From the NCBI GenBank assembly GCA_000165345.1, contig CM000431.1:992001-1056000 (forward strand): 64,000 bases of DNA, read 5' to 3'. Under the pieces are notes generated by a model, which saw nothing but the letters and a program-made list of their open reading frames with translations, was not told where the DNA came from and ran no database searches. Both the position numbers and the translations under genes were made by a program. This document shows, in pieces, positions 4,322 through 7,975 of this stretch. How positions within the stretch are numbered: position 1 is the first letter of the stretch; every line of letters begins with the position of its first letter.

Positions 4322-5071
4322 ATGGCTTCAACTAATATACATAGCCGTCGCAATGAGGACATAGATTTGGAAAGCCAAGAGTTTGAGTCCTTTTCTAAAA
4401 GTGTAAGACATGGCTTCATTCGTCGTGTGTACATGCTTGTAGCTCTACAAGTTTTGTTTGATTTGGCTTTATCATTAATGGTCATAAATGTTCCATCGTT
4501 GAAATTATTCATGCTTAGAAACTTATCAGTTATTAAAATGACTGCTTTTGCATTTGCATTAATTTCATCTTTGTTGTTCTTCTTCTTGTATAACTATTCA
4601 AACTTATTGCAAAATCATTCAAGTAAGATGGCATTTTTCTGTATAATGACAATTTCAGAAGGAGTACTTCTCTCACTATTAGCACTACTTGTTAATACAA
4701 AATATTTGCTAATGGCGCTTGCTTTTACTTCAATCATTGTTATCTCATTAACGATTTTCTCGTTCCAAACAAAGTATGACTTTACATCATATCAAGCATT
4801 CATATTTTATGGAACTATTGCATTTGCAGTATTCTCCACCATTTATATGTTCTTCCCAACTGTCAGAATTATCGAGTTAATTATATCACCGATCGCAATA
4901 TTTTTCTTTTCATTTGCACTTGTGCAAACAACACAAAGCATTATTGGTAATGGAAAGCAAATGATTTACGAGGATGATTATGTTCTGGGAGCCTTATTGA
5001 TTCACTCTTATATTATTGACATTTTCATATATATTTTGAGGTTTATTCTAGCAGTCTTCGAAAGAAACTAA
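4322..5071 (+). CDS. TMBIM / Bax inhibitor-1 / Lifeguard family multi-pass membrane protein
   Basis: 249 aa, about 7 predicted TM helices. The N-terminal RHGFIRRVYMLVALQVL matches the family signature (x-FIRKVY-x-IL-x-QL) that precedes TM1. The size is typical for the family. Confidence 0.6.
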   Translation: MASTNIHSRRNEDIDLESQEFESFSKSVRHGFIRRVYMLVALQVLFDLALSLMVINVPSLKLFMLRNLSVIKMTAFAFALISSLLFFFLYNYSNLLQNHSSKMAFFCIMTISEGVLLSLLALLVNTKYLLMALAFTSIIVISLTIFSFQTKYDFTSYQAFIFYGTIAFAVFSTIYMFFPTVRIIELIISPIAIFFFSFALVQTTQSIIGNGKQMIYEDDYVLGALLIHSYIIDIFIYILRFILAVFERN

Positions 5072-5246
5072 ATTTCTAAAATTTTTAGATTATTATTGTG
5101 GGAATATATGTAACAAGCTACCTGTAATTTTATTGGGATTGAACTTATTTAACTACTAATTATTTTTTATTTTTATTTTTTTTTTGTTATATTTGTTTGC
5201 TTTCTTCGATACTTTAAACCTGAACTATGAATTCAAAACAAAATCG

Positions 5247-5288
5247 TTCGGGCGCGCCAAAATTTACGTTGTGTGTTCCCGCCAATTT
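5247..5288. promoter_or_regulatory. E2F-like motif cluster (GGCGCGCCAAAA and TTCCCGCCAATTT) upstream of the Pro-repeat membrane protein gene
   Basis: Palindromic GGCGCGCC at 5251-5258 followed by CCAAAATTT, and TTCCCGCCAATTT at 5276-5288; 220-260 bp upstream of the ATG at 5510. Confidence 0.4.
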
Positions 5289-5509
5289 GCTTATTTTTGT
5301 TTTTTTTATTGTCCTTATGGGATTATTATAATTACTTCAATATCATCATTAAGAAGTTATTAATAAAAAAACAGTTTTCTAGGAAATTATTGGTGACTTT
5401 CAGAGGACCCAAATCAAGCAAGAAAATTTTGTTTTGTATTTGAGTATTGCTACTTTTAATTTTAAGTAGCTAATTAATATTTTTGTTGTTTATAGAAATA
5501 AAATGATAA

Positions 5510-6449
5510 ATGGCTGATTCTGATATGAATAATGATCTTCCCACTCTCAGTGGTGCAGATACAGAAACAAACTTTGTTGAAACTGTAAGTTTTACCTCTT
5601 TTCATTAAAATGAGTTACATTATGGGGGGAATATTTGTTTCCATTGAGATCTTGTCTTAAAGATCATTAATGTAACTAATGTTTAATGCAAATTAACAAT
5701 TGCCTTTATTATTAAAAATTATTAACTTATTTTTAATGTAGAACAACGAAATACCGTTATGGGCAATCATTACTATATCCGTCTTATCATGTATGCTAGT
5801 TTGTATTGTAATTGCATTTCTAATTATATACTTCAGAGAAAGGGAAAGAACTAAAACCCGAGAAAGAATTGAAAGACAATTCAGAATGGCAGAGACGAAG
5901 AAGCTGACCAGGTATTTGCAAACTTTAAGAGAAAGGATGATGTTTAGGAACCAAAATGCTCAAATTAACCGTCAGCCAAATTCCAATTTTCAGAATGGAT
6001 TTCCAGTTAATGTTGGACCCCCAAGGGGACAAATGCAGTTTAACCATCCTCCGCCTGTCGGACCACCTCCGCCTGTTGGCCCACCTCCACCTGTTGGTCC
6101 ACCTCCACCTGTTGGTCCACCTCCACCTGTTGGACCACCTCCACCTCAAATGTTTAATCAAATGGGTCATCCTGTCAACTATCCACCTCAAATCCAACAG
6201 CCAGTTTTTACCAATGCTCCTCCATTTGCCCCCCCAGTAATCCCACCACAAAACTTCGCACCTAATTGCTCTGCTCAGCCAATTAATATACCACCGCCAA
6301 ATTGTCCTCCAAACAACTCAAATATTACCCAAGGAACAATTTCTTTAACTGTTCATGACCCATCATTAATACCAGAAGGACCGCCTCCGACTCCACCTCC
6401 TGGATATGTGACTGTTCCGATTGTCTTGCAAAACGAAAACCACCAATAG
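5510..6449 (+). CDS. spliced gene for a single-pass membrane protein with a proline-rich (PPVGPP)x6 tail. Exon 1 is 5510-5584, the intron is 5585-5741, exon 2 is 5742-6449
   Basis: The ATG at 5510 sits in an A-rich Kozak-like context (aaaATGG). There are exactly 25 codons to a GTAAGT donor at 5585. A TAG acceptor ends at 5741. The downstream ORF is open in frame from 5742 exactly. Joining gives MADSDMNNDLPTLSGADTETNFVET|NNEIPLWAIITISVLSCMLVCIVIAFLIIYF..., which restores a complete TM helix. Without splicing that helix would be truncated at the M of the 5793 ORF. Confidence 0.5.
5585..5741 (+). other. predicted spliceosomal intron (157 nt, GTAAGT...TAG, phase 0)
   Basis: Canonical GTAAGT donor. 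ATTAACT branch-like element about 25 nt upstream of the AG, followed by a T-rich tract. The frame is preserved across the junction. Confidence 0.5.
6047..6146 (+). repeat. 18-nt coding tandem repeat (CCACCTCCACCTGTTGGN)x~6, encoding (PPVGPP)n
   Basis: Directly visible near-perfect 18-mer repeats. The antisense ORFs over this tract are mirror artefacts. Confidence 0.9.
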
Positions 6450-6967: not shown

Positions 6968-7975
6968 ATGGTAAAAAGGAGTGCAAAAGAAGTAACCAGT
7001 AATTACAATGAATCATATGAGAATGGAATATATTATAAACAATTAAATAAACAAGATACTAGAAATTCGGACTTCGTAAATGAATTTGAAATAAAGAATG
7101 TAACTACACTTCAAGAGGAAAAGAATAATTATAATAAAAAGTTGATTGAGAATGGGCTGAACAACATTTGCAGAGTAATTGTACTGGATTGGCTTATAGG
7201 GGTACATAGAAAGTTTCAATTCAGGCCTGCAACTATCCATATTGGGATAACTTTATTTGATAGATTTATCAGACTAAACAATAAACACGGATTGATAAAC
7301 TGTGACAATCTTCAATTAGTTGGAGCAACCTGTCTTCACATTGCATCCAAGTACGAAGATATGAACCCAGCGGTTCTATTAGATTACTGTATAATGAGTA
7401 ATTCAGAATTCAATCCTAAAGACATGATAAATATGGAAGTTGAAATACTAAATACTTTGCATTTCAAAATAGCAGATAATACTACACTTATTGACTATTT
7501 GGATTCATTTTTTGAATATGGAATTTTGAAAGGAGTAAATAAAAAAAAGCTACCAAAATATTTCTATTCAAGTGCTTTGTATATATCAGAATTATCTTTA
7601 CTTCACCAAGCAATGATATTTTACCGTCCAAAAGTACTTTCAACATCAATTTTACTACTTCTATGTCTGCTATTTGAAAAAGATGAGTCAGAAAGAAACA
7701 ATTTGTCCATATTAAAAGATTTAAAGTATTCATTAAAAAGATTTTCAAAAATTAATAATATCACAAAGGAAATTCGAATATGTATTAAAAGCTTATTAGG
7801 TATAATTAAAGAACAATTCTTTCTAGAGGTAAAAATTAAAGAAGGATTTGAAAATTCTATTATTGGGGTTAATCCAGAAGAAGAAATACCATTTATATAC
7901 TTGAAAGATTTAACAAGTAAGTGGAGAAATGCATATACAAACTTATATAAGAAAATTTCAAGTTTAAGAACTTGA
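6968..7975 (+). CDS. cyclin (cyclin-box protein, A/B-like)
   Basis: The cyclin N-terminal box at about 7166-7463, ICRVIVLDWLIGVHRKFQFRPATIHIGITLFDRFI...LQLVGATCLHIASKYEDMNPAV...MEVEILNTLHF, matches the consensus MRAILIDWLVEVH...ETLYLTVNIIDRFL...LQLVGVTAMLIASKYEE...MEHLILKVL. Confidence 0.75.
   Translation: MVKRSAKEVTSNYNESYENGIYYKQLNKQDTRNSDFVNEFEIKNVTTLQEEKNNYNKKLIENGLNNICRVIVLDWLIGVHRKFQFRPATIHIGITLFDRFIRLNNKHGLINCDNLQLVGATCLHIASKYEDMNPAVLLDYCIMSNSEFNPKDMINMEVEILNTLHFKIADNTTLIDYLDSFFEYGILKGVNKKKLPKYFYSSALYISELSLLHQAMIFYRPKVLSTSILLLLCLLFEKDESERNNLSILKDLKYSLKRFSKINNITKEIRICIKSLLGIIKEQFFLEVKIKEGFENSIIGVNPEEEIPFIYLKDLTSKWRNAYTNLYKKISSLRT

Follow-up and report, generated by a model that had tools for sequence, protein, structure and literature searches.

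Conserved two-exon structure of cgd3_4040, a Cryptosporidium parvum gene for a predicted single-pass membrane protein

Positions 5510–6449 of the window, the 64,000-nucleotide stretch of DNA that was analysed, contain the two-exon gene cgd3_4040 of C. parvum chromosome 3, which lies between the Bax-inhibitor gene cgd3_4030 and a cyclin gene (Table 1). The assignment follows from the flanking genes and the published gene order: the ORF at 4322–5071 is an exact match to the C. parvum 'Cgd3_4030 protein / Bax1-related' (Bax1-I), the ORF at 6968–7975 exactly matches a C. parvum cyclin, and CHUDEA3_4030, CHUDEA3_4040 and CHUDEA3_4050 pair consecutively with cgd3_4030, cgd3_4040 and cgd3_4050 in the supplement to the C. 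hominis annotation, which also gives 96.2% identity and a dN/dS of 0.07 for cgd3_4040 between C. parvum and C. hominis (Isaza et al., 2015; PMC4637869). The order Bax1-I, cgd3_4040, Cyclin_N is identical in every locus that spans both neighbours; on L010, a short Logan contig, Bax1-I lies upstream of the cgd3_4040-like gene and is the only neighbour shown. A literature search for the name cgd3_4040 found no paper.

Table 1. Positions of the features at the cgd3_4040 locus, numbered from the first letter of the window.
Feature	Positions	Strand	Description
Promoter-like block	5254–5283	+	GCGCC (5254–5258) and ACGTTGTGTGTTCCCGCC (5266–5283)
uORF	5503–5517	+	ATG ATA AAT GGC TGA; out of frame, overlaps the main ATG; its ATG is within the 10-mer AAAATGATAA (5500–5509)
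Exon 1	5510–5584	+	Start codon and 24 codons, encodes MADSDMNNDLPTLSGADTETNFVET; acidic, 6 D/E, no K/R
Intron	5585–5741	+	157 nt, phase 0, GT-AG spliceosomal
Exon 2	5742–6449	+	Codons 26–260 and the stop codon (6447–6449)
Single transmembrane helix (predicted)	5751–5834	+	Residues 29–56 (IPLWAIITISVLSCMLVCIVIAFLIIYF); one Kyte-Doolittle peak, 2.93
Tandem repeat, (PPPPVG)n in the tail	6043–6146	+	Tandem Repeats Finder: 18-bp period, 5.7 copies
C-terminal motif	6357–6428	+	DPSLIPEGPPPTPPPGYVTVPIVL; nearly invariant in all Cryptosporidium orthologues

The elements of the splice model are all present in the C. parvum sequence. As the initial annotation had proposed, an ATG (5510–5512) opens an exon of exactly 25 codons (75 nt) that ends at 5584 and is followed by a GTAAGT donor (5585–5590). 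An in-frame TAA (5507–5509) directly precedes the ATG. The intron ends with TTATTTTTAATGTAG at 5741, its AG preceded by a T-rich tract. The TAG at 5739–5741 has the dual role that had been ascribed to it, since it contains the acceptor AG and, read in the exon-2 frame, is also the stop at which that frame closes upstream, leaving it open back to 5742. Joining 5584 to 5742 excises 157 nt and gives a coding sequence of 783 nt and a protein of 260 aa with the N-terminus that had been written out. The intron has a G+C content of 24%, compared with 43% in the spliced coding sequence, and 4–5 stops in each frame; if it is retained, translation stops after 32 aa (codon 33). ATTAACT at 5721–5727 places a branch-like A 16 nt from the intron 3′ end.

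Other splice sites were considered and set aside. The donors GTTGAA (5576), GTGGTG (5550), GTGCAG (5553) and GTTTCC (5637) are frame-compatible and were rejected as non-consensus, and acceptors upstream of 5741 were excluded because the in-frame TAG at 5739–5741 would then enter the coding sequence.

A second C. parvum assembly, GCA_048859185.1, differs from the window at a single site across the whole gene, a 1-nt indel in an intronic G run at 5624 (G6 in the window, G5 in the other assembly). As a 1-nt change would shift the frame if this stretch were coding, the indel supports the intron.

How widely is this structure shared? We compared the locus with those of C. meleagridis, C. ubiquitum, C. 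felis, C. bovis, C. ryanae, C. canis, C. muris and two Logan contigs. For annotated orthologues, the intron was solved as the one that reproduces each annotated protein; three loci in which exon 1 is unannotated were added, namely the Logan contigs L010 and L011 and a C. canis assembly whose model is truncated to 168 aa. Eleven Cryptosporidium genomes have a short ATG-initiated exon 1, a phase-0 intron ending in AG and the same exon 2 start, with exon 2 opening in all eleven just before the motif [EDN]-[VI]-P-[LIT]-W-A-I, and the orthologous proteins align to that of C. parvum from the first exon-2 codon onward. Exon 1 is open and ATG-initiated in the ten other genomes, with a length of 72 or 75 nt except in C. 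muris, where it is 33 nt (11 codons). In the nine exons from species other than C. muris, the encoded peptide has 4–6 D/E and lacks K/R, and both alternative frames are interrupted by stops in all nine. The donor is GTAAGT in nine of the other genomes and GTATGT in C. muris. Intron lengths across the eleven genomes are 78, 81, 93, 156, 157, 165, 166, 167, 168, 177 and 180 nt, and the most diverged intron is only 41% identical to that of C. parvum. The introns end in TAG, CAG or AAG after T-rich tracts and have stops in all three frames, such that retention truncates the protein in every species.

Because nucleotide identity is a poor guide here (C. ubiquitum and C. parvum are 73% identical in exon 1 and 77% identical in the intron), the coding status of exon 1 rests on its ATG, length, open frame and acidity. 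Exon 1 substitutions show a modest third-position excess (259 vs 184 and 122). In the codons of the hydrophobic helix encoded by exon 2, substitutions are mostly at third positions (563 vs 184 and 81), which is indicative of purifying selection.

The ORF that begins at ATG 5793 encodes 218 aa and starts within the hydrophobic segment. With a start at this methionine, MLVCIVIAFLIIYF leaves just 14 hydrophobic residues ahead of RERER, in keeping with the earlier remark that the annotated ORF begins in the middle of a helix; splicing restores, as was also claimed, a complete transmembrane (TM) helix formed by the one hydrophobic segment of the protein. Met 5793 is confined to the group of C. parvum, C. 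meleagridis and C. ubiquitum and is leucine or absent in seven of the ten other genomes, in which the first exon-2 methionine falls late in, or past, the TM helix. Since this methionine is lost and the helix is conserved, translation must begin upstream, and exon 1 offers the only conserved start.

The cgd3_4040 intron is much like other Cryptosporidium introns, of which 84% begin with GTAAGT (Irimia and Roy, 2008; PMC2483917) and which average 99 nt and 22% G+C (Isaza et al., 2015; PMC4637869). It shares the GTAAGT donor, the AG acceptor and a G+C content near the typical ~22%, and it is short, single and near the 5′ end of the gene. At 157 nt, however, it is longer than the reported means of 82–99 nt and the median of 61 nt (PMC2483917; PMC4637869). 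It also has a YTRAY at −16, whereas the introns of C. parvum lack a clear branch-point consensus (PMC2483917), and the branch-like motif is for that reason weak evidence. A YTRAY lies 16–24 nt from the intron 3′ end in 9 of the 11 genomes and 32–33 nt from it in C. ubiquitum and C. muris, and such a motif is common in AT-rich DNA; in C. canis the branch-like motif is TACTAAC.

The spliced two-exon model is already known: it became public no later than 2015, with the C. hominis UdeA01 annotation. In that annotation, CUV05344.1 (CHUDEA3_4040, 253 aa, 2015) has the identical spliced N-terminus, MADSDMNNDLPTLSGADTETNFVETNNEIPLWAI. The C. parvum assembly GCA_048859185.1 annotates the same range from ATG to stop with a 260-aa product, as judged by gene range and product length, and excision of a 156-nt intron from it reproduces exactly the protein of the initial annotation. 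The gene is also annotated as spliced in C. meleagridis, C. ubiquitum, C. felis, C. bovis, C. ryanae and C. muris, and the orthologue gene ranges exceed the coding sequence length by exactly the intron; some of these annotations may be homology transfers and hence not independent. The UdeA01 and IGA annotations were built with RNA-seq and cDNA, and with such data the share of intron-containing genes in C. parvum rose from 4.3% to 10.8%, for a total of 688 introns (Isaza et al., 2015; PMC4637869). Baptista et al. (2022; PMC8744675) state that RNA-seq supports 100% of the introns in their C. parvum IOWA-ATCC (CpIA) annotation. A search of JGI metagenome contigs for the exon-exon junction returned 0 matches, a result that is uninformative on splicing. 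The C. tyzzeri model TRY52652.1 (242 aa) has as its start the second exon-1 methionine (MNNDLPTLSG...).

Two elements upstream of the coding sequence are conserved. The 10-mer AAAATGATAA, which abuts the start ATG, is identical in nine of ten Cryptosporidium genomes and differs in C. muris; it is conserved although the intergenic DNA around it has diverged. It carries an upstream ATG at −7, out of frame with the gene, which opens a 4-codon uORF in C. parvum and is missing from C. muris. The exact 13-mer at the uORF and start occurs once in the window. Conservation of the 10-mer may reflect translational control or a strong start context.

Farther upstream, ~230–255 nt from the ATG, is a block of columns that do not vary in an alignment of seven genomes, although the intergenic region around it has diverged; a conserved TGTCCTTA comes after it (5310–5317). 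The 18-mer ACGTTGTGTGTTCCCGCC within the block occurs nowhere else in the window, and none of 100 shuffles matched it. The E2F consensus is TTTSSCGC, and the TTCCCGCC and GGCGCC cores of the block appear to resemble E2F sites. On the basis of these E2F-like cores, the block is probably the cgd3_4040 promoter.

Our preferred reading, to which we assign a probability of roughly 0.93, is that a canonical U2-type phase-0 GT-AG intron at 5585–5741 is removed and that translation from ATG 5510 yields 260 aa. This reading is supported by conservation across the genus, a strain polymorphism confined to the intron and matching public annotations. The pre-mRNA would lose the intron, apparently by constitutive splicing, and the 25-codon exon 1 would be joined to exon 2; translation starting at ATG 5510 would then produce a full-length single-pass membrane protein.

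Could the features of the splice model line up by accident in AT-rich intergenic DNA? The initial annotation had considered the agreement of four features (the consensus donor, the branch-like ATTAACT, the frame-preserving junction and an ORF opening exactly at the acceptor) unlikely to be coincidental. To gauge chance, we made 5000 dinucleotide-preserving shuffles of 5072–5738 with the acceptor fixed and scored as successes those with an open exon that began at an ATG, spanned 10 or more codons and ended at a frame-compatible donor. When any GT was allowed as donor, 71% of shuffles yielded a model, and the window contains GTAAGT 13 and 12 times on its two strands, so that a coincidence is not absurd at face value. 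However, the fraction fell to 3.1% with a relaxed GTRNGT donor and to just 0.5% with GTAAGT, and it is this difference between 71% and 0.5% that identifies the consensus donor as the carrier of the signal. The opening of the ORF at the acceptor is weak evidence, as it is a by-product of the TAG acceptor and differs in C. felis and L010, where the acceptor is CAG, and in C. bovis, where it is AAG. Thus the part of the argument that stands is the GTAAGT donor, now joined by conservation, while the branch motif and the position of the ORF may well be coincidental. The recurrence of the architecture in 11 genomes, with introns down to 41% identical, effectively refutes chance coincidence, and we give it almost no weight. 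Another alternative is that there is no intron and that the gene is the single ORF at 5793–6449, its hydrophobic stretch serving as a signal peptide. This ORF is the one returned by a mechanical ORF listing, the C. hominis TU502 protein XP_666995.1 (211 aa) starts at the same methionine, inside the TM helix, and two C. canis assemblies annotate a still shorter 168-aa model, beginning at MAETKK and named 'signal peptide-containing protein'. Yet the 17 codons that precede Met 5793 are under purifying selection even though the methionine itself is lost in most of the other genomes, a start there would leave only the 14 hydrophobic residues, and the DNA between 5510 and 5793 contains eleven other ATGs. 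Moreover, in C. canis the genomic DNA that precedes the truncated model (L012 1116–1355, from GCA_027243985.1) contains an intact exon 1, a GTAAGT donor and an acceptor, and the unspliced model has been superseded in newer annotations. An intronless gene is therefore highly improbable, and the truncated C. hominis TU502 and C. canis models, which survive in older or automatically made records, are correctable annotation errors.

If the intron is removed, is its removal regulated? Retention, or transcription from an internal start, could give rise to an additional isoform or to a transcript that is not productive, and the overlapping uORF could add translational control. A retained intron would end translation early in every species, which fits a non-productive isoform, and the 10-mer bearing the upstream ATG is kept in nine of ten genomes. 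However, stops within a retained intron are the default expectation in AT-rich DNA, and only three C. parvum genes are reported as putatively alternatively spliced, none of them bearing a chromosome-3-style identifier that could be linked to cgd3_4040 (Baptista et al., 2022; PMC8744675). We consider regulation of this kind distinctly unlikely; it would in any case not be exclusive of the preferred reading, in which the intron is spliced out and ATG 5510 is the start.

What kind of protein would the spliced mRNA encode? The predicted product has a short acidic extracytoplasmic N-terminus and a TM helix that would run into a basic juxtamembrane helix, followed by a tail of ~165 residues, 33% of them proline, that is predicted to be disordered and cytoplasmic. 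AlphaFold2 modelling of the C. meleagridis orthologue gave one helix (residues 31–96) and a disordered remainder; the mean pLDDT was 54, with block means of 79–92 over residues 31–60. The protein had been described as type-I-like, and the acidic N-terminus, single TM helix and proline-rich tail on which that description was based are all present. However, the charges flanking the helix (−7 on the N-terminal side, +8 on the C-terminal side) and the lack of a cleavable signal peptide predict an N-out, C-in orientation of type III rather than type I. The likeliest class for the product is thus a single-pass membrane protein of type III (N-exo signal anchor, C-in).

The tail contains two distinct elements, the PPPPVG repeat and the C-terminal motif. 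The number of PPPPVG copies varies among C. parvum, C. hominis, C. meleagridis and C. tyzzeri and is greatest in C. parvum. Short-read assemblies probably break at this repeat, and a 99-aa ENA fragment starts right after it. An exact look-up of the 260-aa spliced protein and the 218-aa ORF in a protein collection found neither, and broken contigs at the repeat are the probable reason. The 18-bp repeat is also a possible length-polymorphic marker. At the C-terminus, the orthologues share the almost invariant sequence DPSL[IV]PEGPPPxPPPG[YF]VTVPIVL.

A homology search with the spliced protein matched Cryptosporidium proteins only, several of which start with the exon-1 peptide; the orthologues are 46–87% identical, with E-values from 1e-43 to 1e-141. 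The orthologue set comprises CUV05344.1, CmeUKMEL1_06750 (C. meleagridis), cubi_01210 (C. ubiquitum), HWI79_857 (C. felis), FG379_001297 (C. bovis), FG386_001716 (C. ryanae) and CMU_032200 (C. muris). These share with cgd3_4040 the two-exon structure and phase-0 N-terminal intron, synteny, the TM and basic juxtamembrane helices and the C-terminal motif, and the C. hominis product is identical to that of C. parvum over the first ~130 residues. The orthologues differ from C. parvum in PPPPVG copy number and intron length (78–180 nt) and, in C. muris, in the 11-codon exon 1 and the GTATGT donor. The Logan contigs L010 (SRR31861040) and L011 (SRR31860986) both carry syntenic Bax1-I and cgd3_4040-like genes, and L011 also has the cyclin gene. 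Their cgd3_4040-like proteins are ~69% identical to that of C. parvum, and neither contig matches any named Cryptosporidium genome retrieved.

A Pfam scan of the product found no family; the best match, DUF3290, scored 14.8 bits where the gathering threshold is 31.3, and the sub-threshold matches all cover only the TM helix and basic stretch. Among 1.84 billion representative proteins, a profile search returned only Cryptosporidium proteins, including C. muris CMU_032200, and one weak match from Selenidium. The Selenidium pygospionis (archigregarine) sequences, GHVN01074855-61, have a short N-terminus, a single TM helix, a basic juxtamembrane segment and a proline/glutamine-rich tail, and they carry a C-terminal PEGPxPxPPPGFVxVP motif; one transcript has PEGPAPVPPPGFVAVPMV, which matches the Cryptosporidium C-terminal motif in part. 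As these sequences come from a transcriptome, an architecture of this type exists on mature mRNA. The match is weak, with a profile E of 8e-5, and in a pairwise BLASTP comparison the alignment is confined to the C-terminal 14 residues.

What might the C-terminal motif bind? A PPxY-type ligand for WW domains was rejected, as PPGY is replaced by PPGF in C. bovis, C. muris and Selenidium. Ligands of GYF domains carry PPG-Phi, as in TNRC6, TTP and ZNF598 (PPPPGF) (PMC10187677), and the C-terminal PPPG[YF], which is invariant in all homologues, fits this consensus (PMC10187677). This fit is no more than a lead. The match is a short linear motif in proline-rich sequence, and the known ligands are soluble RNA-associated proteins rather than membrane proteins. 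We speculate that the tail is probably a membrane-anchored docking site for proline-recognition modules.

The value of this analysis lies mainly in curation, and the cgd3_4040 intron, already in public annotations, opens no new biological question. The correct model restores the full TM helix and the N-terminal ectodomain, and it shifts the predicted class of the product from 'signal-peptide protein' to single-pass membrane anchor. Our results also indicate that the initial annotation, made from the DNA letters by combining the GTAAGT donor with frame logic, recovered a true intron in an intron-poor genome. Unlike the intron, the 10-mer, which gives rise to an overlapping, out-of-frame uORF in nine of ten Cryptosporidium genomes, and the PPPG[YF] anchor may be previously undescribed. 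It is conceivable, if rather doubtful, that the conserved overlapping uORF could throttle translation of cgd3_4040 and that the protein may be a membrane anchor, specific to Cryptosporidium and gregarines, that recruits a GYF-type partner to a membrane through PPPG[YF].
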